A DNA stretch of 62,957 bases from Candidatus Saccharimonadota bacterium (GCA_020428465.1 JAGQMY010000006.1:1-62957); one strand, 5' to 3'. Shown: positions 1,257 to 20,646, numbered from the stretch's first letter. A program made the numbers and translations. Notes: generated by a model from the sequence alone, not told the origin.

Positions 1257-2867
1257 TTAGTTGCTAGTTGGCGTAACTAGAGGATTGTCGTTCTTACCAT
1301 CGGCGTCAAAAAATTGGGGCTGATTAGACGGTGGCATTAATGGTGGTGGTACTGGTGGTGGTGAATTTGGGTTAACTACTTGAGGAGGTGGTTGGTCTGC
1401 TGGATTAACTTGATCTGGTTGTGCTGGAGTTTCTGGTGCATGTTGTGCCGGTTTTTGTCCCTCAGAAGTACTTTGCGCCTGTTCTGTTGCCTGCCTTGCA
1501 TCGTTAATTGCCTTTTCTACATCTGATTTTGCTTCAGTTTGATCGCCCACAAAGCCGTTTTTAACCATTCCGACGAATTCGTCAGGCACTTGGGGACTGT
1601 CACTTACGTGCGGGCTATCTACTGCTTGTTCCAAATCGGTTAAAGTCTGCGGACTTGAACTTACGGGCTCGGGCGTTGTCACATTTTGAGCTGACTGTTG
1701 TGGATCGCCTTCTGCTAAAGGTTGTATGACTTTTTTGCCGTGCGAGAACATAGATTTCTCATCCTCACTTATCACTGAGGGTTGCTCATCTAGTAACGGC
1801 TGAGCTGTTACGGTGCCACTGTCGTCTTGCGCAAAAAGCTTAGGTGGCTCTACCGGTGGTATAAAGCTGTGTTCTTCACTCTCATTTGTAGGCTGTTGAG
1901 CTGTTAAAGGTTCGACGGGCTCCACAGGATTTACATCTGCAGTCTGTTGGTTTTCTGAAGCAGGCATCTCAGATGGCTGTTCTGGAAGTTTCAAGTTTCC
2001 ATTATCGTCTATGTGTATATCCTGAATCTCGTTTTCGTCATGGCTGATTTCTAATGCTCCATCATTATCGCTGTCGTCACTAGAACCGTACTGCAAAGGA
2101 GCAACTGGTCCTGAATGATCAGGTTCGTCTAGTTTTTCTGCTATAAGCTGTTGGTTAGCTCCCTGACTCATCAGTTGAGCGCTGATTGATAATACCTGTG
2201 GTGTCGTATAACCGTTTCTGAACCTATCAGTTTCGGCCACTATACCTGTCATAAGTGCTGTAGCTATTTGTCCGTCTACAAGGTTATCACCAAGTTGACC
2301 GGATATGCTTGCTATCATCTCGGAAATACTGCTCGCTTGTTGCTCCTGCCAATTAATTGCACCGATATTACTAACAATGTCGTGGTTAGTCAGTGCGACT
2401 ACAGTAGCATCATGTAGAATTCTCCCATGTGCTGTTATAGCTGTGTCGAAATCTTCTTTTTGTACTACTCCTAGGGCCACTACAGCATCGACGTTGAAAT
2501 CACCCTGGCTGAAGTCTAGATCTTTTTCGCTGATTGAAGTCTTATAAGGTGTTATAAAAATTCTGACTACATTATCTTCGACTTTATATCGCAGTTTGTC
2601 AGCCTTAGATTTATCCAGTGCAATTATGAAATCTCTCAAGCTATCGGTGTTTGAATCAATCGCCATTTCAGGCTGCAAAAACTCAATTGTTGAGGGTACC
2701 CTACCGCTAAATACCGTGATCGAATGCTTTCCCATGTGATTTAGCATTAGGGTTAGTCCGATCGCTGCAGTCAAATCGTCAACAGATGGGTTATTCTTAA
2801 CAGTCACCAATACATTATTGGAGTCCTTTAATACTTTTACTACTTGTTCGGCTGCCGGATTTTGCAT
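1257..2867 (-). CDS. DHH-family (NrnA-like) phosphoesterase-like protein with a roughly 290-aa acidic/Pro-rich low-complexity tail
   Basis: The N-terminal ~245 aa have a DHH-domain layout (PSVDDLTAAIG, VVALTNHD, GIVAETDRFR). I found no GGGH/DHHA1 region, and the C-terminus is low complexity. Confidence 0.55.
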   Translation of the reverse strand: MQNPAAEQVVKVLKDSNNVLVTVKNNPSVDDLTAAIGLTLMLNHMGKHSITVFSGRVPSTIEFLQPEMAIDSNTDSLRDFIIALDKSKADKLRYKVEDNVVRIFITPYKTSISEKDLDFSQGDFNVDAVVALGVVQKEDFDTAITAHGRILHDATVVALTNHDIVSNIGAINWQEQQASSISEMIASISGQLGDNLVDGQIATALMTGIVAETDRFRNGYTTPQVLSISAQLMSQGANQQLIAEKLDEPDHSGPVAPLQYGSSDDSDNDGALEISHDENEIQDIHIDDNGNLKLPEQPSEMPASENQQTADVNPVEPVEPLTAQQPTNESEEHSFIPPVEPPKLFAQDDSGTVTAQPLLDEQPSVISEDEKSMFSHGKKVIQPLAEGDPQQSAQNVTTPEPVSSSPQTLTDLEQAVDSPHVSDSPQVPDEFVGMVKNGFVGDQTEAKSDVEKAINDARQATEQAQSTSEGQKPAQHAPETPAQPDQVNPADQPPPQVVNPNSPPPVPPPLMPPSNQPQFFDADGKNDNPLVTPTSN

Positions 2868-3029
2868 ATTTTTGGTTTTTAAATGCTTACGTTTTTGATT
2901 GTACCATGATTTTTACCGGTATGTCTATAGTATTTACTTATCTGTTAAACTTCGGTATAATTACCTGAAAAGTTCAATAAACAATTTCGCATACATTACT
3001 AGGCGAATATAACAGGAGTGAATTAACAT

Positions 3030-3392
3030 ATGCCAATTATCAAATCAGCCAAGAAGCGTGTCCGTGTTGCTAAGCGACAATCGACTGCAAATGCAAAAAC
3101 CAAGCGATCATTACGGAACGCAATTCGCAATTTTCAGACAGTACTAACAGGCAAAAAAGAAACTACTAAGTCTCAGTCCGAAGCGTTCAGTGCAATAGAT
3201 AGAGCTGTTAAGAATGGCGTGATTAGTAAAAACAAAGCTGCTCGAAAGAAGCGACAGCTTAACGCAAAGTCAAAAGCAGCCGGTACAACCAAAGCAGGTT
3301 CTAAGGCAAAATCTTCAGTAGCGAAGCCAGCAACTAAAAAAGCAGAAGCTAAGAAGCCAGCTGCCAAGAAAACTACAGCTAAGAAAAAATAA
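3030..3392 (+). CDS. rpsT: 30S ribosomal protein S20 with Lys/Ala-rich C-terminal extension
   Basis: Typical S20 N-terminus MPIIKSAKKRVRVAKRQ. AGGAG-like SD upstream. Confidence 0.85.
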   Translation: MPIIKSAKKRVRVAKRQSTANAKTKRSLRNAIRNFQTVLTGKKETTKSQSEAFSAIDRAVKNGVISKNKAARKKRQLNAKSKAAGTTKAGSKAKSSVAKPATKKAEAKKPAAKKTTAKKK

Positions 3393-13114: not shown

Positions 13115-13621
13115 TTAAGCCGAAGGTGGAAGGATTTCTGGACTAGGTGACGCAGGAACGCTATTGCCATTTTCCGCTTTGCTTGCTTCATAAGCAGCTG
13201 CTTCTTGTGAGTCTACGGGTAATTCTACAGTAGCAAGTCCTTCAGTTCCTGGTAATTGATCCCTAATTTCTGCATCGGGGCCTGTTCCCAAGTTCACACT
13301 AACATCCCCTCCTCCCTTTGATGCTTCGTATTTCCTGGCAGAACGTGCAGCCTCTGCACCAAACATTGCCATTAGTACACCGCCACCTGAATTAGGGTGT
13401 TCATTAAGCTTAGCTAATGTCTCAATTACATCTGCGGGTGCTGGCTCACCATCGGGTCCCACCAAGTTTCCGTTCGCGTCTGGATGATAATCAACAAATA
13501 AAGTTCTTACTTTATCGTCTGGACCAGAGGCTACAGCGTCGTTTGCTGCTTGGTTATTTGCAGCTTCTGTAGCATCTAAATCTACAGGCACTGCAGGTGT
13601 TTCACTTGGTATATTTGTCAT
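13115..13621 (-). CDS. hypothetical protein (Ala/Pro/Gly/Asp-rich)
   Basis: 168-aa ORF with an AAGGAA SD. Last gene of a three-gene operon. No recognisable domain. Confidence 0.5.
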   Translation of the reverse strand: MTNIPSETPAVPVDLDATEAANNQAANDAVASGPDDKVRTLFVDYHPDANGNLVGPDGEPAPADVIETLAKLNEHPNSGGGVLMAMFGAEAARSARKYEASKGGGDVSVNLGTGPDAEIRDQLPGTEGLATVELPVDSQEAAAYEASKAENGNSVPASPSPEILPPSA

Positions 13622-13711
13622 TTTTGTTATTCCTTTTTTTTATTTTTATTTAGCTAGTTTTTATTTTTCTAACTTGCATACATCTTATCACGTTTATGCT
13701 TAAATGTCAAC

Positions 13712-14815
13712 CTAGTTGCCTGAATTATTTTTCGTGATTACACAGTTGGCTAGAAAAGTTTTCAGATCTTCTAATAATGCACCTAATTCTTCACCTAACA
13801 GTTGGTGATCGTTATTGGGCTTATCTGTATCTCTATCAAGTGCAAAAGCTGTTAGAAATTCTTTTGCGGTTATACCTGGATATATATCCCTTTGGGGTTT
13901 ATTTATTCTGTTACCATTATCGTCATACTCATAGACAATCTCCTTAAACCAAACAAAACCATTTTGATCTATTTTGTACTCTTTTATTGTTCTTGTCCTA
14001 TTACCAGAGTCATTTATTCCAGCTTCTAGTTTTCTTAGCACTACTGTAGGTGCTACCGTAAAATTCTCATCTAGCTCATCCGCCTCTTCAAAACTAAAAT
14101 TCCAAGCCTCAGTACTATTAGGTTTATAGGCTAGTCGAGCACCGACTTTTTCATGCATCAATGCTTCTATCTTGTCTTGAGGTTCTCCGTAAAGTTCGTT
14201 GTCGCTAAACTTATCTACTATTTGTTCAGCAATTAGACGGCAATTCCCTACAGTTAATTTATCCTCGTCAGTGAGGCTTGGATGCCAATCGTATTGAGCA
14301 CTAATACGTTCACTCACTTCTTGTTGCTGATTCTTATAGTGGGAAAATGCTCCTATACCGTCTTGGTTTTTTATCTCACTAAAATCGTTTAAAGTTAGCA
14401 GAGTCATCAAAACTTGATCAACTGCTTTTTCAAGACCTAGTTCCTCCAGATCACCGTCTAGTGTAATAGTGTCCCCATCTTCAAATGCTAAAGATGAATT
14501 AGGTGTAATCGATGACTCATCAGCAAAAAATGAAACATAGTATTGTACATTAGTAGCGCTCTCAAATATCGTACTACCACTCATTGCTTCTAGATCAACT
14601 TGTGTAATTGGGTTTGTGTGTGCATTTTCGAAAAAATGGCAGTTGGCACGCAAACTTACTACTCTACCGTCCGATAGTTTATGAAATGCGATTCGGTCAT
14701 ATTCATCAGGAAAATCCGTTGGCAAGCTAACACTATTACTTAGTAGTCTCTGCATTTCCGATTCTATGCCCTTTCCAGGAATTTCAGCCCCCGTGTAAAT
14801 TGGTAAATTATTCAT
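13712..14815 (-). CDS. hypothetical protein
   Basis: 367-aa ORF, soluble, acidic. No recognisable domain. Confidence 0.55.
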   Translation of the reverse strand: MNNLPIYTGAEIPGKGIESEMQRLLSNSVSLPTDFPDEYDRIAFHKLSDGRVVSLRANCHFFENAHTNPITQVDLEAMSGSTIFESATNVQYYVSFFADESSITPNSSLAFEDGDTITLDGDLEELGLEKAVDQVLMTLLTLNDFSEIKNQDGIGAFSHYKNQQQEVSERISAQYDWHPSLTDEDKLTVGNCRLIAEQIVDKFSDNELYGEPQDKIEALMHEKVGARLAYKPNSTEAWNFSFEEADELDENFTVAPTVVLRKLEAGINDSGNRTRTIKEYKIDQNGFVWFKEIVYEYDDNGNRINKPQRDIYPGITAKEFLTAFALDRDTDKPNNDHQLLGEELGALLEDLKTFLANCVITKNNSGN

Positions 14816-14842
14816 ATTAATTAATCCGTTCTTAATAGTTAA

Positions 14843-15637
14843 TTATGATAGTTTGAATAGTCTTTTTGCAATTCGAATTTGGTTAATGTCTTTTGCCTGC
14901 TCATCTGCTGGTAATTCTACAAATGAAACTTCTAGACCTGGTTCAATCCAGCCACCGTTATCCTGCTGTCTTTGAAGCCAAGCAGAGTGAATTTCATCAC
15001 CGATTTCAGCAAACACTTGTTTGTCATTCAGATTAATATCACCATTTCGCGTTAATATTATTTCAACAACCTTTTTTGCTGCTTCATAATTATCTTTCTG
15101 CCAGTGAGGATGTAGATTTTCGAAATTGGTATTAGCTATATCTTGCGAAAATAATTTAATTTCACCAGATTCAGTTTTATCCTCATTAATCCACTTTTCA
15201 AAACCGTCACGAACTACTAGGCATTTCACTCTAGGCCTAAAAGTACCATCAGGATTTCCAAAGTTTTCCGTACGCCATTCATCGTGTAGAACAGAAGCAA
15301 GTAGAAATGACGCGCTTTCAAGCAACTCGACTTGTTCGCGCTCAATAAACTCCTTCACACCCTTAAGAGACACACCCTCAGGCGTAACAAATCCTGAATT
15401 CTTTAAAGACTCTGTTATCGAATCAGCCCATACTCTATTTACTGCTTTTTGTTTTCCTAGTGCGCCAATTGCGCCAGCAAGCCCTGATTCAGAACTAGTA
15501 GGAATCAAGCTACCATTACACTCAGCAATTTCCCATATTGATAAATTAGCTAGGCCCGATAATTTTGAGAGTTCTTCGCCAGCTCTACCAATCTCTACCC
15601 CTTTGTCTAATTGTGCTTGACTTGGTTCATATTCCAT
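14843..15637 (-). CDS. hypothetical protein with two RyR-domain-like repeats
   Basis: LHDEWR..IANTNFENLHPHWQKDNYEAAK and IHSAWLQRQQDNGGW..FVELPADEQAKDINQI resemble the RyR consensus iHe.W...GW...y.eLpeeeK..dr. Strong AAGGAG SD. Confidence 0.45.
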   Translation of the reverse strand: MEYEPSQAQLDKGVEIGRAGEELSKLSGLANLSIWEIAECNGSLIPTSSESGLAGAIGALGKQKAVNRVWADSITESLKNSGFVTPEGVSLKGVKEFIEREQVELLESASFLLASVLHDEWRTENFGNPDGTFRPRVKCLVVRDGFEKWINEDKTESGEIKLFSQDIANTNFENLHPHWQKDNYEAAKKVVEIILTRNGDINLNDKQVFAEIGDEIHSAWLQRQQDNGGWIEPGLEVSFVELPADEQAKDINQIRIAKRLFKLS

Positions 15638-15849: not shown

Positions 15850-15878
15850 ATTTTACGATTTTAGTTACATATTGTCAA
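15850..15878 (-). promoter_or_regulatory. sigma-70-type promoter for the 15637-13115 operon
   Basis: On the minus strand: TTGACA, 17-nt spacer, TAAAAT. Confidence 0.45.
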
Positions 15879-15939
15879 TTTTAACTTATTATATGGTCTT
15901 AATAAGGTGTTTAGACTTGCTTTTTATGTCATTTGTTAC

Positions 15940-15968
15940 TTGACATAAAGATTTCGTTTTGATATAGT
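15940..15968 (+). promoter_or_regulatory. sigma-70-type promoter placed for a leaderless TrmB-like mRNA
   Basis: TTGACA, 17-nt spacer, TATAGT, then 7 nt to the ATG at 15976. No SD. Confidence 0.5.
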
Positions 15969-15975
15969 TTCATTT

Positions 15976-16761
15976 ATGAATGTACAGATTCTTACCGATA
16001 TTGGCCTAAGTGAAACACAGGCAAAGATGTATATTGCCTTAATCAAAAATGGAAACCTTACACCACCCAATGCTGCTGAATTGTTAAATATTAAACGTAC
16101 AAATGCATATGCAGTGCTTGAGCAATTAGATAATTTGGGCTTAGCGAAGAAGAAGGAGCTTAATAAAAAAGTAAGCTACTGGGCTGAAAATCCTACAGCT
16201 ATTGAAAAACTGGCAAGAGACAACCGTTCGCTAGCGCTTGAGCATGAGAGACAAGTCCAAGCTTCGATGCCTACCCTTCTTAACTTTTATTACACTTTCT
16301 CTGACCAGCCAGGAGTCAGATTTTTTCAGGGCCTAGAAGGCATAAAAGATATTTATAATGATATTCTCAGAACCAATAAAGATGTCTACGTGGTTAGATC
16401 TGCACATGACCAGGACTTAATGAGTGAGGTATTTTTCACCGAATTCAAGAAAAAGAAAGCCGACAGAGGTATAACAACTCACATGATTAATCCCAAAAAC
16501 GATCCGGCATACTGGAACAAACAAACCGACAAGCATCACCGAACAATCAGGACTCAAGTCCATCCGGAGCTTTACACGGCAAATGTAGAAATATGTAGTT
16601 ACGGTGATAAAGTATCAATCATATCATTTGGCGAAGAAGCTATAGGTATGATTATCGATAGTCCACAGATTGCCGAAGCTAATCGGCAGCTTTTTCACTT
16701 AGCAAAACTTGGAGCCGAAACGGCTAGTAAAAACCACAAAAAAAATGGTATTTATGCTTAA
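15976..16761 (+). CDS. TrmB-family winged-helix transcriptional regulator
   Basis: The N-terminus LSETQAKMYIALIKNGNLTPPNAAELLNIKRTNAYAVLEQLDNLGL is a typical TrmB-type wHTH. Confidence 0.7.
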   Translation: MNVQILTDIGLSETQAKMYIALIKNGNLTPPNAAELLNIKRTNAYAVLEQLDNLGLAKKKELNKKVSYWAENPTAIEKLARDNRSLALEHERQVQASMPTLLNFYYTFSDQPGVRFFQGLEGIKDIYNDILRTNKDVYVVRSAHDQDLMSEVFFTEFKKKKADRGITTHMINPKNDPAYWNKQTDKHHRTIRTQVHPELYTANVEICSYGDKVSIISFGEEAIGMIIDSPQIAEANRQLFHLAKLGAETASKNHKKNGIYA

Positions 16762-16792
16762 TTTCTATATACTTTAAAGTGAAAACCAAATT

Positions 16793-19108
16793 ATGAAACA
16801 TTATTTTGAGCTATACCTAAAATCAAATGTAGCAACTTCTGAACAGTGGCAAAGTTTCTTTTCGGCTCTTACGGCTCATATAGGATATATGAACAAGTGT
16901 CAGGTGATAATGTCCGTACAGGACAGTGTTATTCGGTATTTTGTCGGTTCAGATAAAGATTTAGGGGTACTAAGTAATAACATAGACATTGGAGTATTGA
17001 GACCAATAACTGAAGAGGCTATAGGAATTCCAAAAACAAAATCATCTGAGAGATTAGTTTTCTTCTCTGGAAATTTCTTAGATTTACGTGAGCGCATGAA
17101 GGTTAAGCGCGGTAAAGAACTCGAGTACATAGTCGTAAATTGCAGAAGAATCAACGCCGAAAAAACCTTTGCCAATACGTCCCTGTATTTCAAAAATCCT
17201 GCTGGTCATTTCAGTGTTAATAAGAAAAAGACGCTTTCCTTTCCAGCTCGTCAGCTTACGGTAAATTTTGACGAAAACTCACGTTACCTAAAGAAGGAAT
17301 TCCCTAAATATTTAAATATAGAAAAAGCTCTGTCAGTATTATCACCAGTCGCTAACAATGCTCTTTTTGAAGTAAATACTTTTCCCTATTTCGCGAACGA
17401 TTATTATCTCAACCTACTTGACTATGAGTTCGATAAACACTCCTTCATCGTGGGAGCAAGTGGCTCTGGAAAGTCTAAACTAATTGAGCTATTTATAGAC
17501 CGACTCTCGAAGTCGGCTTATCGTAACAACTACCGAGTTTTAGTCATTGATCCGCACGCATCACTCGGCAAAGAGCTACAAAATATCGAGGATTCTCAAG
17601 TGATAGATTTTTCAGGCGATAGTGCGCCAGAACTTTTCGGAGATTCAGCCAAGACAGACGTATCAGCATCAACCGAGTTGACTACTACATTAATGAAAGC
17701 GTTACTAGGTGATCAGTTCAATCCTAAAGTTGAGCGAGTGCTTAGATTTAGTTTGTTCGTATTGTTTACAGCACAAACTATGTCACTTGGTATGCTCAAA
17801 AGATTTCTAACTGAACTAGAGCTACGGAATCAGATTCTTGAACACGTGGCTGGGAACATTCCTCCTAATATCGAGAAGTTTTTTGGCGCTGATTACAATG
17901 AAATCCGCACGACTCATTATACCGAAGCAATTTTACCGATAATTTCACTAGTTGATGAAATGCAACTACAGCCTGGTATGGTTGGTGAAAGTGAGCTTTC
18001 CCTCTCAAAAGCTATTGAGCAAAATTTTTTGACTGTATTCTCGTTGAATAAAGTCAGTATGGGAGAGAAAGTAGTAAAAACTGCGGCGGGTATTTTAATG
18101 CAACAAATATTCTTACTTGCCCAAGCTAGATCATTTAACGAGAAGGTAATCTTGTTCGTAGACGAAGTATCGGTAGTACAAAGTCCGGCAATGGCCTCAA
18201 TTTTATCCGAAGCGCGAAAATATAATTTGTTCATAATCCTTACCCAGCAGTATTTCGGACAGGTTGAAAAACAGCTAAAAGACGCAATCTATGCAAATGT
18301 ATATAACTACTATGTTTTCCGCGTATCTGAAGAGGATGCTGAAGGTCTTATCGGTAACTTAAATATTGAGATTCCTAAAGAAATAATTGAGGAAGAGCAT
18401 AAAAAAGGTATTAAAGAAGAAACAATCAAAAAGCAGTTAATGACAGAGCTGCACCCCCGTGAAGTGTTGGTAAGAATTTCTGCTAATGGGCAAATAATCC
18501 CTGTGTTCAAAGGATGTACTCTCGACATTGGTACTGGCTCAAATGAAAGAATTAAAATTGACCCAGATAAACTAACTGCAGTTAACGCGCAGGAGCCTAA
18601 GGTTAAAAAGTTTGTTGAAAGTGAAGCTAAGTCTCTTAACGATGTGCCACAACTAAATAGCACTGAATCAAATGAAAAATCTCTAAATTTAGCAGAAATC
18701 TCCCATTTAGAAGTAGCATCGCCAAATCCAACACCTAGTACCGAAGAACTTGCTAAGGATTCCTATTCGGCATGGGAAAATGGCCCTAATGGTAATACAG
18801 TTAGCGAGAATTATGCCGAAAAGCCTTTTAACCCAGAATCTGAAGAATCATACTTAAATAACCCCGAAGTTGATCCGATTGAACGACGGCAGACTAAAGC
18901 CAGAAAAAAGCAGAATGCTGGTATTGTTGCATCTGTAATAACCAGGAGTGAGATTTCACTAGAAGCTGCTGAAGCCAACCCGATATCAGCAGAATTCTTT
19001 AAAACTTCAGGCTCTCCGTCAACATCATCTGGCTTTGGAAGTGGTAATCTGGCAAGTATCTTAGCGTCACAATCATCAAATAACGATTTAGCATCTAAAA
19101 GGAGTTAA
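16793..19108 (+). CDS. HerA/FtsK-superfamily (DUF87-like) P-loop ATPase with a disordered C-terminal tail
   Basis: Walker A DKHSFIVGASGSGKSKL, Walker B VILFVDEV, and EARKYNLFIILTQQ (the RKYG..TQ motif of HerA/VirB4-type ATPases). The last ~190 aa are low complexity. Confidence 0.7.
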   Translation: MKHYFELYLKSNVATSEQWQSFFSALTAHIGYMNKCQVIMSVQDSVIRYFVGSDKDLGVLSNNIDIGVLRPITEEAIGIPKTKSSERLVFFSGNFLDLRERMKVKRGKELEYIVVNCRRINAEKTFANTSLYFKNPAGHFSVNKKKTLSFPARQLTVNFDENSRYLKKEFPKYLNIEKALSVLSPVANNALFEVNTFPYFANDYYLNLLDYEFDKHSFIVGASGSGKSKLIELFIDRLSKSAYRNNYRVLVIDPHASLGKELQNIEDSQVIDFSGDSAPELFGDSAKTDVSASTELTTTLMKALLGDQFNPKVERVLRFSLFVLFTAQTMSLGMLKRFLTELELRNQILEHVAGNIPPNIEKFFGADYNEIRTTHYTEAILPIISLVDEMQLQPGMVGESELSLSKAIEQNFLTVFSLNKVSMGEKVVKTAAGILMQQIFLLAQARSFNEKVILFVDEVSVVQSPAMASILSEARKYNLFIILTQQYFGQVEKQLKDAIYANVYNYYVFRVSEEDAEGLIGNLNIEIPKEIIEEEHKKGIKEETIKKQLMTELHPREVLVRISANGQIIPVFKGCTLDIGTGSNERIKIDPDKLTAVNAQEPKVKKFVESEAKSLNDVPQLNSTESNEKSLNLAEISHLEVASPNPTPSTEELAKDSYSAWENGPNGNTVSENYAEKPFNPESEESYLNNPEVDPIERRQTKARKKQNAGIVASVITRSEISLEAAEANPISAEFFKTSGSPSTSSGFGSGNLASILASQSSNNDLASKRS

Positions 19109-19110
19109 AA

Positions 19111-19824
19111 ATGGCCGATATAAATAAAAAACCCGATACTTTAGAAGAAATACTTGATAAAATTTGTGCGAATGTATTTGGGTATAGAAATCCTTTCACT
19201 CCTGAACAATTTTTGCAGAAATTCGGGTTTGACATACGTCTTCCTAAGCCGATAAATGACTCGACAGACGGTAGCCAGACGTGGGCACAGTCAACTAATC
19301 CGACAAAATTTATAACATTTAAGAATGCACAAAAGCGAGCTGAAATTGATGATTTCATGATACCTAAGCGACCTATAAATTCGGTCGAAGATATCTTGGC
19401 AGCCTGGCAAGAAACAAACTATATGGCAACCGAACGCCAACTCGAGTCAATCGATATATTCGAATCAGACAATATTTATAATTCGCAGAATGTTTATCGA
19501 TCTATGGATGTTCATTTTAGTAAAAATGTTTTTGCTTGTGATGGATGTCATAAATTTGAGTATGTAGCCTGTTCGCAAAGGTCTAATTCGTCTACTTATT
19601 GTTTACGTATTGAAGACTCCAAGGAATGTAGTAACAGTTTCAATATCATTTGGTCTGGCAAGATTACTAATTGTCTATTTATAAATGATTGCTATGACAT
19701 GTATAAATGCATGTTTTGCTCGCATATGGCCGGTAAAAAATTCTGCATTGCTAATATGCAGTTTACCGAGGAGGAATACAATCACTGGGAAAAAATTATT
19801 AAACAGTGGATATTGAGTAATTAA
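19111..19824 (+). CDS. Cys-rich hypothetical protein
   Basis: Strong AAAGGAG SD, 2 nt after the ATPase stop. The C-terminal half carries about 12 Cys in repeated C-x2-C / C-x-x-x-C spacings (CDGCHKFEYVAC..CLFINDCYDMYKCMFCSH..FCIANMQFTEEEY). Confidence 0.55.
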   Translation: MADINKKPDTLEEILDKICANVFGYRNPFTPEQFLQKFGFDIRLPKPINDSTDGSQTWAQSTNPTKFITFKNAQKRAEIDDFMIPKRPINSVEDILAAWQETNYMATERQLESIDIFESDNIYNSQNVYRSMDVHFSKNVFACDGCHKFEYVACSQRSNSSTYCLRIEDSKECSNSFNIIWSGKITNCLFINDCYDMYKCMFCSHMAGKKFCIANMQFTEEEYNHWEKIIKQWILSN

Positions 19825-19841
19825 AATACATAGCCGAGACC

Positions 19842-20534
19842 TTAAAGATTATCTAAATTGCTCTGCTTTTTTTGTTCTTTCATGGCATACATTTCTCTAT
19901 CAGCACGAGCAATAAAATCATTAACTTTTTCGCCTGGTTTATGATCAACAATGCCATAGCTAACTCCTAGTTCTGGTATGCCAATCCTAATAGCTATATC
20001 TCTTATTTTATCGTTAATTCTTTGTGTGAAACCTTTAATCGCTTCTTCCTTTGAAATTGCTGGATTTCGTTTTCCGTTATGAGGGTTATTTGTGTTAATG
20101 ACTATACAGAACTCATCTCCGCCCCACCTTGCCGCGACTTCTCCAGACCTTAATTCTAAACTTTTCAAAAATTTTCCAAATTCAACCAGCACCTCGTCAC
20201 CAGTTTCATGACGCCCCGTTGACCTATCATTAACAGCTTTGAAATTATCCAAATCAATGAATACTAAGGATATATCCTCTGGATTTACGTTACTATTCGC
20301 ATTTAGTTGAGCTAACCTATCTTTCAGCCCGTTTCGGTCTAAAAGACCCGTCAAATGATCAGTCTCTGCCTTATCTCTGGCTAAAATCGCATTTGCTCCT
20401 ATAGGCCCTGCTAATTCCTGTATAAACGTCCATCTTTCCATTAAATCACTCGTTGGATTCAATAAATTACCCGGTGATATTTCTTGCAACATCGGAGTCT
20501 GTGGCATTGGGATATGACTTTGATTTTCTGGCAT
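19842..20534 (-). CDS. GGDEF-domain diguanylate cyclase
   Basis: LTGLLDRNGL, FIDLDNFKAVND and an intact RWGGDEFCIV active-site motif. Only a short (~60 aa) N-terminal region. Confidence 0.85.
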   Translation of the reverse strand: MPENQSHIPMPQTPMLQEISPGNLLNPTSDLMERWTFIQELAGPIGANAILARDKAETDHLTGLLDRNGLKDRLAQLNANSNVNPEDISLVFIDLDNFKAVNDRSTGRHETGDEVLVEFGKFLKSLELRSGEVAARWGGDEFCIVINTNNPHNGKRNPAISKEEAIKGFTQRINDKIRDIAIRIGIPELGVSYGIVDHKPGEKVNDFIARADREMYAMKEQKKQSNLDNL

Positions 20535-20598: not shown

Positions 20599-20628
20599 AC
20601 TATAGCATAGATTCTATTATTTTGTCAA
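20599..20628 (-). promoter_or_regulatory. sigma-70-type promoter of the GGDEF gene
   Basis: On the minus strand: TTGACA, 18-nt spacer, TATAGT. Confidence 0.4.
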
Positions 20629-20646
20629 TTTTAGATTATTATTACT

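Follow-up and report, generated by a model that had tools for sequence, protein, structure and literature searches.

What task could be served by a motor ATPase whose gene is followed after only 2 nucleotides (nt) by that of a predicted beta-solenoid protein? This question is raised by positions 15,976 to 19,824 of a 62,957-nt stretch of DNA from a Candidatus Saccharimonadota bacterium (GCA_020428465.1, JAGQMY010000006.1:1-62957), which was analysed as a whole and is called the window in the following. Ring ATPases of the FtsK-HerA superfamily power chromosome segregation and DNA repair, conjugation and virus packaging, as well as several anti-phage systems, and each time it is the partner protein that defines what such a ring does. 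Establishing the function of this pair would add a new type of partner to the HerA/VirB4 machines and would assign a role to a recurrent piece of the 'dark matter' of episymbiotic bacteria. An earlier description made without database searches (the sequence-only reading) had treated the two genes, together with a TrmB-type regulator gene before them, as one three-gene module. The three open reading frames (ORFs) are real: they lie co-directionally on the + strand, are translated without stops into 261, 771 and 237 amino acids (aa), and are as tightly spaced as described, with gaps of 31 nt and 2 nt.

15976..16761, + strand: TrmB-type winged-helix regulator P0001, 261 aa (Pfam TrmB), a lineage-specific neighbour of the pair
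16793-19108, + strand: ATPase P0002, 771 aa
19100..19104, + strand: Shine-Dalgarno sequence AGGAG of the partner gene, within the end of the ATPase gene and 6 nt before the ATG
19111..19824, + strand: partner P0003, 237 aa (AlphaFold model)

The conserved unit is the pair of ATPase and partner, not the trio, and the TrmB gene is a local, lineage-specific addition outside this unit. On balance we lean towards the view that the pair is a two-gene operon for a ring ATPase-solenoid complex working on a polymer, placed in one family (f1) behind an autoregulating TrmB gene.

The ATPase-partner pair and its distribution

In a survey of 151 Saccharimonadales genomes, the partner was present in 26 (about 17%). 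A full-length ATPase orthologue (threshold E <1e-130) was found in 24 of these 26, always adjoining the partner, and no genome contained the ATPase without it. The two exceptions, both located close to or at the end of a contig, are one genome in which the partner lies 51 nt from a contig end (G304) and one fragmented assembly (G332). All 21 genome loci that were fetched have the ATPase gene followed by the partner gene on the same strand, and in three genomes the partner gene is tandemly duplicated, with two, three and four copies, respectively. A metagenome scan with distant partners gave 71 distinct loci, whose partners are 28-54% identical to the query of the scan and 25-38% identical to P0003. 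In each of the 55 distinct loci with at least 900 nt of upstream sequence, a P0002-type ATPase is encoded directly upstream of the partner; the stop-to-start spacer lies between -11 and +21 nt in 53 of the 55, with a mode of -4. One genome locus (L029, G314:C5:31000-49000) has an intact partner gene but two ORFs, of 270 and 419 aa with an overlap of about 100 nt, in place of one ATPase orthologue, probably because of a frameshift or an assembly error.

In the case of the regulator, the ATPase is directly preceded by a TrmB orthologue in only three genomes, G000 (that of the window), G306 and G440, all of family f1. Two other genomes with the f1 context have no TrmB gene at that place, and close P0001 orthologues are also found in genomes without the pair. 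Thus the strict co-occurrence that the sequence-only reading expected of three genes holds for the ATPase and the third gene; as a trio they do not hold together in other genomes. Elsewhere, other regulators take the upstream position. A Bacillota-labelled gut lineage (20 loci) has a 264-aa regulator with an AraC helix-turn-helix (HTH) and a GyrI-like domain in the same co-directional place, as seen at positions 2252-3043 of locus L173 and at 19 similar gut or rumen loci, where this gene lies 40-90 nt upstream of the pair. Two further loci have an Lrp/AsnC regulator divergently placed upstream. Because the regulators differ between lineages, they have been recruited independently, and none of them is part of the module. 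Other loci show unrelated upstream genes (UvrB, SOD, NUDIX, nicotinamide mononucleotide transporter, ABC ATPase).

Altogether, the pair was found in Saccharibacteria, in metagenome DNA of unplaced origin and in at least one Bacillota genome bin from the gut. The latter corresponds to the partner at one of the loci with the AraC/GyrI-like regulator, which is GenBank entry CDE09173.1, 'caib/baif family protein [Bacillus sp. CAG:988]', and thus bears a Bacillota label. The name 'CaiB/BaiF family protein' is a mislabel in GenBank, unconnected with coenzyme A (CoA) transferases, and it accounts for the automatic cluster names in ESM Atlas. A possible archaeal occurrence (Microcaldota / Micrarchaeota-type) is indicated only by ESM Atlas taxon labels. 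No public description of the pair was found in literature searches.

The pair stands in at least five different flanking contexts, and its neighbours are housekeeping genes: PolA, sigma-70 and DnaG in the window, UvrB and GatCAB elsewhere. For the eight genomes with the context UvrB - pair - GatCAB, constraint was compared as mean pairwise identity:

ATPase core: 66.8%
Partner: 62.2%
GatA: 67.9%
GatB: 64.0%
UvrB: 79.7%

Conservation like that of GatA and GatB, together with presence in only about 17% of the genomes, is in keeping with an ancient accessory module under strong constraint and with frequent loss. For the Saccharimonadales carriers, whose genomes here have only 0.7-1.6 Mb, 3 kb for the pair is a real cost. 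A viral origin was rejected, as no relative of the partner is encoded at any of the 21 places where viral contigs matched the pattern, and the PHROG matches are weak (phrog_5156, of unknown function, for the ATPase core; phrog_15341 for the partner, E 5e-4, sub-threshold).

The ATPase, its solenoid partner and related arrays

The architecture of the ATPase is as follows.

aa 1-205; 16793..17407, + strand: N-terminal alpha/beta domain, predicted local distance difference test (pLDDT) 80-93
aa 206-585; 17408..18547, + strand: ATPase core, Pfam DUF87 and TrwB_AAD_bind
Core sites: Walker A at 17453-17476; helical insertion at aa 290-410; Walker B (DE) at 18161-18166; ARKYN and TQQ
aa 586-771; 18548..19108, + strand: low-complexity, mostly disordered C-terminal tail, then the stop codon

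The motifs named before are indeed present, with KHSFIVGASGSGKS at aa 215-228 and ARKYN..TQQ at aa 474-486, and P0002 matches Pfam DUF87 and TrwB_AAD_bind above their cut-offs. Within 35 orthologues, GASGSGKS (aa 221-228), DE (457-458), ARK (474-476) and QQ (485-486) are invariant; P0002 should therefore be catalytically active, judging from these motifs. Further profiles of NCBIfam and PADLOC (TraD, EccC, VirB4, HerA, mad8) were matched below threshold and at the level of the P-loop, and in a sequence search of the Protein Data Bank (PDB) again only the P-loop stretch was matched (profile E 0.004). No transmembrane segment was found in P0002: no 19-residue Kyte-Doolittle mean exceeds 1.45, the value at the Walker B strand.

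The structural model, built with the 35-sequence alignment, has good confidence over residues 1-270 and over a large part of the remaining core up to about residue 580. Foldseek gave HerA complexes as best matches (E about 1e-13). The VIA-align scores of the model, which cover residues of about 170-585 and are statistically tied, were:

VirB4 C-terminal domain (4ag6): Z 23.9, 313 residues
Sir2-HerA and DUF4297-HerA: Z about 23
DndH-C: Z 21.6
TdpA: Z 21.5
TrwB: Z 20, about 360 residues
FtsK: Z 17
EccC: Z 16.9

P0002 thus shows the core features of the FtsK-HerA superfamily (Z 17-24 to FtsK, HerA, VirB4, TrwB and EccC), in agreement with the class first assigned to it. By these scores it belongs to the VirB4/HerA/TrwB branch and is not placeable in one of the families of that branch.

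As in HerA-NurA, Sir2-HerA/Nezha, DUF4297-HerA and TdpAB, a soluble ATPase of the superfamily goes with one strictly linked partner gene; the core aligns to these systems with Z 21-23 and a root-mean-square deviation of about 3 Å over about 250 residues, and the catalytic motifs are intact. Sequence identity to them is only 12-18%, with a profile match limited to the P-loop stretch, and no alignment of the N-terminal domain to the HAS barrel was obtained with VIA-align. No linked NurA, Sir2, DUF4297, nuclease or NADase partner of the HerA type was found with Pfam and PADLOC in P0003 and nine flanking ORFs. With VirB4 and VirD4 (TrwB, TraD), P0002 shares the TrwB_AAD_bind match and a helical insertion between Walker A and Walker B; it differs from VirD4/TrwB in having no N-terminal transmembrane anchor, and from type IV secretion in that no VirB3, VirB6, VirB8, relaxase or pilin genes lie nearby. 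The family profiles stay far below their cut-offs for VirD4/TrwB (TIGR03743, 22 bits vs 366; TIGR02759, 13 vs 521) and for VirB4 (TIGR00929, 15.6 bits vs 643), of which only the C-terminal ATPase domain aligns well.

Regarding the ends of the protein, a unique N-terminal domain of about 210 aa had been proposed. The N-terminal 170-205 residues are well folded and basic (isoelectric point 9.4, net charge +8). VIA-align gave no convincing alignment of this domain to any solved chain, and HerA chains align to the model only from about residue 170 onward. The domain is not unique, since ESM Atlas contains similar N-domains (template modelling scores 0.57-0.64) in other DUF87/TrwB_AAD ATPases. The disordered tail was described correctly: confidence is largely low after about residue 590, with most of 590-771 disordered and pLDDT <50 at 594-679 and 716-753. 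The tail contains short conserved motifs (KF.E near aa 606-609, L757 and S761), and distant orthologues, with lengths of 563-630 aa, have a shortened tail or none.

The partner consists of three parts.

aa 10-105; 19138-19425, + strand: N-terminal alpha/beta head, confident in the model
aa 118-219, + strand: beta-solenoid of 17 hexads
aa 220-234; 19768-19812, + strand: C-terminal helix

In the AlphaFold model (overall pLDDT 81), short strands placed 6 residues apart run into a repeat region of lower confidence that extends to about aa 215. When autocorrelation was computed over 44 orthologues, peaks were seen at lag 6 (z 4.5) and lag 12 (z 6.4) and also at 18 and 24; period 12 is stronger than period 18. 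Within residues 118-219, small residues occupy positions 2 and 5 of the hexads. Fold searches gave weak matches only (Z <=4.5), nearly all of them beta-helices (LpxD, GlmU, adhesins, antifreeze proteins), with the best left-handed beta-helix scores at Z 4.3-4.5 (LpxD, CbpF) and Foldseek E about 1. As modelled, the partner forms a narrow beta-solenoid whose coils have 12 residues each, and it is of no described family: no Pfam (including Hexapep), NCBIfam or PADLOC family matched, the PDB gave no match by sequence, and neither a transmembrane segment nor a signal peptide was found. It resembles the LpxD/GlmU beta-helix and the insect and plant antifreeze proteins in its period of 6/12 and its small inward residues (Ser, Cys, Ala, Val). 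Unlike LpxD and GlmU, it shows no acyltransferase active-site features, and with Z <=4.5 no homology can be claimed; unlike hexapeptide-repeat and antifreeze proteins, it is cytosolic, has its own N-terminal head and C-terminal helix, and is always paired with the ATPase.

This explains the Cys pattern differently from what was first thought. The sequence-only reading had seen about 12 Cys packed in repeating spacings in a 237-aa protein starting 2 nt after the ATPase gene. Length and start are right, the Cys number is 11, and the spacings reflect the period-6/12 solenoid repeat instead of a Cys-packed module. Eleven is the highest count among the 44 orthologues, which have 4-11 Cys. Invariance is limited to C203 and C212; C194 (41/44) and C173 come close to it, followed by C200 (34/44) and H205 (about 90%); the remaining Cys are replaced by Ser, Ala or Val in orthologues. 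Therefore the Cys mainly occupy inward-facing solenoid positions and do not form a metal cluster. A zinc-finger or Cys-cluster protein was rejected as a candidate, since a set of at least four conserved Cys/His ligands was not found. The terminal site C200-x2-C203-x-H205-x6-C212 may bind a metal. At the solenoid end lies the family hallmark F-C-x8-C-I-A-N-x-Q-[YF]-x3-E-Y, which is kept down to 25% identity.

Solenoid domains of this kind extend beyond the order. They were found in 19 of about 380 sampled Patescibacteria genomes, in multi-copy proteins mostly of 530-620 aa with two solenoid domains each, and in several cases arrays of up to 10 tandem double-solenoid genes directly follow the gene of a soluble ATPase of about 750 aa. 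The paralogues within arrays are 33-52% identical to one another. In one locus (L115, G497:C1:360000-379999), ten closely spaced genes for double-solenoid proteins of 561-617 aa come after the ATPase gene, all in the same direction; in two other arrays (L117, L120), many proteins carry an N-terminal CxxC...FY(E/K)K motif. That these arrays represent the same pair is only partly true, because their ATPases are 32-36% identical to a paralogue on another contig of the host genome (C58) and only 23-25% identical to P0002. A candidate interpretation of the 570-590-aa Patescibacteria proteins matching the partner as ATPase-solenoid fusions was also rejected: they contain two solenoid domains and no similarity to the ATPase. 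Since solenoid genes accompany two ATPase subfamilies, the ATPase-solenoid association is older than either of them.

The C58 paralogue is the second DUF87 ATPase of this genome (L135 7441-10938, - strand; 921 aa). In contrast to P0002 it has an N-terminal transmembrane segment and is a separate, membrane-anchored protein of the VirD4/TraD kind, with weak TraD/VirD4/CedD-like matches; no solenoid gene lies beside it. Before its gene lie those of two other proteins, one of 112 aa with four hydrophobic segments and one of 115 aa, and gyrA/gyrB and a PKD-domain protein are also among the neighbours. In Southlakia epibionticum, SEML1_0293 is non-essential by transposon sequencing (PMC10633639) and counts as the C58 counterpart by equal length and domain positions only. 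A keyword search of the transposon sequencing table of that species gave no P0002-type gene, only the 921-aa C58-type ATPase (PMC10633639).

The putative complex and possible functions

For complex prediction, residues 1-762 of the ATPase were combined with the partner, using a separate alignment for either protein, and three controls were run alongside. The interaction prediction score from aligned errors (ipSAE) was 0.36, 0.43 and 0.39 for the pair vs 0.00 in all three controls. A mark of 0.39 is reached by 58 of 80 solved complexes and by 2 of 110 mismatched pairs, and values up to 0.60 count as a weak pass; with run agreement of at least 39% and a partner pLDDT of at least 85, the result was rated as weak support. 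Taking this prediction together with the genomic linkage and the translational coupling, a physical ATPase-partner complex is considered likely.

On this basis, the soluble ATPase of the FtsK/HerA/VirB4/TrwB branch and its translationally coupled partner of about 230 aa would form a functional unit. The ATPase is probably a hexameric ring, like its solved relatives. The solenoid protein may dock on it in a stoichiometric complex, as adaptor, regulator or cargo, much as NurA, Sir2 or DUF4297 does on HerA, or TdpB in its own system. The ring would then perform ATP-driven work on a polymer, most likely DNA, a base-rate guess made because most of the closest solved relatives are DNA-acting enzymes. 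The pair would be an accessory cellular module with mostly vertical inheritance and frequent loss, rather than a cassette for conjugation, phage packaging or any recognisable defence. In family f1 it would stand behind a TrmB-type repressor gene, with the three genes probably forming one autoregulated transcript.

Several points weigh against this proposal. Only about 17% of the genomes sampled from the order have the pair, and families contain both carriers and non-carriers; a patchy distribution is also typical of defence or conflict genes. UvrB and GatA are 1.3-2.4 kb apart in five pair-free genomes, compared to about 5 kb with the pair; these five genomes belong to three families, each with another sampled carrier, and two of those carriers have the pair in the same slot. 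Regarding the substrate, the solved relatives VirB4 and EccC act in protein secretion, which is why DNA is named as a base-rate guess. In the partner, no enzymatic or nucleic-acid-binding motif was recognised, and a role of the solenoid as DNA mimic was rejected: the solenoid is mildly acidic, and a net charge of only about -4 is too weak to make such a role compelling.

A first, tentative alternative is a two-part machine in which the solenoid would be a rod working with or inside the ring, for a cellular task that has no known counterpart. Such a machine would be common to Saccharibacteria, other Patescibacteria and the gut Bacillota bin, with the arrays as an expanded version.

Two further alternatives were considered. 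Slow evolution and stable synteny count against both of them, and patchiness and the paralogue arrays count for them. We regard as unlikely that the pair is an undescribed anti-phage or conflict system, in which the ring would sense or translocate invading DNA, the solenoid would serve as sensor or effector, and the upstream transcription factors would be stress-responsive switches. Sir2-HerA, DUF4297-HerA, TdpAB and DndH are indeed among the closest solved relatives, and the best match of the ATPase core in a defence library is MADS Mad8 (PADLOC mad8, E 3.5e-12, residues 214-516). The patchy distribution with the same slot free of the pair in relatives, the slot with variable ORFans in family f1, the recruitment of three unrelated regulator families in different lineages and the presence of the pair in distant lineages, including the Bacillota gut genome bin, also count in favour of such a system. 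However, only the generic ATPase core resembles Mad8, and no methyltransferase or other Mad genes were found in the neighbourhood, so that the other MADS components are absent there. The partner, a beta-solenoid, has no nuclease or NADase fold and no other recognisable effector domain, and among the neighbouring genes that were looked up there is no known defence family. Both proteins are as slow to evolve as GatA and GatB and lie outside a defence island, and the UvrB-GatCAB synteny is kept across many families, unlike in fast-turnover defence islands.

We consider it improbable that P0002 is a coupling or secretion ATPase that recognises the conserved C-terminal part of the solenoid protein as cargo and passes it on, like VirD4 and EccC with their own substrates, to a type IV secretion-like or pilus-like membrane channel whose genes lie elsewhere. 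The Pfam TrwB_AAD_bind match, the sub-threshold NCBIfam matches to TraD and EccC, and VirB4 as top structural match (Z 23.9) are consistent with this role. The C-terminal motif is the most conserved part of the partner family, and the sister ATPase with weak VirD4/TraD/CedD-like matches heads arrays of up to 10 diverged solenoid paralogues, which looks like one motor with many substrates. On the other hand, both ATPase and partner are without a transmembrane segment or signal peptide, and channel genes are absent from the neighbours looked up around the pair. Single-copy Saccharimonadales partners are conserved like housekeeping enzymes, unlike secreted effectors, and the membrane-anchored C58 paralogue has no solenoid gene alongside.

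Finally, an incidental adjacency of three unrelated neighbours with separate functions is extremely unlikely: the TrmB gene is indeed separable, but strict same-strand adjacency of ATPase and partner with overlapping or nearly overlapping stop and start in 21/21 genome and 55/55 metagenome loci, across at least five flanking contexts, already contradicts this explanation for the pair.

The regulator, its promoter and the surroundings

The assignment of the first gene as TrmB-type was borne out: residues 6-65 of P0001 match Pfam TrmB (PF01978; E 7.7e-12, 45.3 bits vs a cut-off of 25.6), that is, the N-terminal winged HTH of this family is present. No Pfam or NCBIfam family matched residues 70-261. 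Two elements lie directly upstream of the gene.

15924..15948, + strand: candidate operator of the TrmB-type regulator, a perfect inverted repeat (TTATGTCA-N9-TGACATAA) that overlaps with the -35 box
15940..15968, + strand: sigma-70-type promoter-like site TTGACA-17-TATAGT with TG (consensus match only)

The repeat has an 8-9-8 geometry, and its core pattern occurs once in the window vs 0.05 expected occurrences. TGTCA-N9-TGACA stands at the equal place upstream of the TrmB orthologues in loci L026 and L027. The promoter-like site has 11 of 12 consensus matches, and its -10 box ends 7 nt before the ATG, a leaderless-type geometry; the spacing between -10 box and start is equal in the same two loci. 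Promoter and palindrome, found again in G306 and G440, are conserved in three genera. The TrmB-type protein may bind this palindrome. A palindrome over the -35 box of a leaderless-type TrmB promoter suggests autorepression and a leaderless transcript that would span all three genes, so that these are probably one autoregulated transcript. In the scan of the 31-nt gap between the TrmB and ATPase genes no terminator-like site was found.

A Pfam scan of nine flanking ORFs showed PolA and three ORFans upstream, on the opposite strand, and a GGDEF protein, a nucleotide-kinase-like protein, sigma-70 and DnaG downstream. None of the nine is a NurA, Sir2, DUF4297, VirB6/VirD4 or terminase gene, as had been noted before, and the impression that the combination matches no named system also stands: PADLOC, Pfam, NCBIfam and PHROGs assign nothing to the partner beyond one sub-threshold PHROG match. 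Around 13-22 kb no tRNA, integrase or convincing flanking repeats were found, and the GC content at the locus is unremarkable. The host genome has about 1 Mb in 111 contigs, and the DNA runs containing the stretch come from activated sludge and wastewater.

In family f1, the ORFans in the slot that is bounded by PolA and the kinase/sigma-70/DnaG block differ from genome to genome. In the window these are three ORFs at 13115-15637 (- strand; 168, 367 and 264 aa) without a Pfam family, lying between PolA and the TrmB gene. They are absent from the other family-f1 genomes, which have different ORFans there, so that this place is a variable slot. On the other side, a stand-alone short GGDEF protein of 230 aa is encoded at 19842-20534 (- strand), convergent with the partner gene and 18 nt after it. 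Additionally, a 24-nt element, ATATTGTCAATTTTAACTTATTAT, lies at 15869-15892, before the TrmB gene in the divergent promoter region, with a TTGACA box on its minus strand. A copy with 88% identity is found at 20619-20642, upstream of the GGDEF gene; the two sites may share a promoter or operator function, or their likeness may be due to chance, the DNA being AT-rich.

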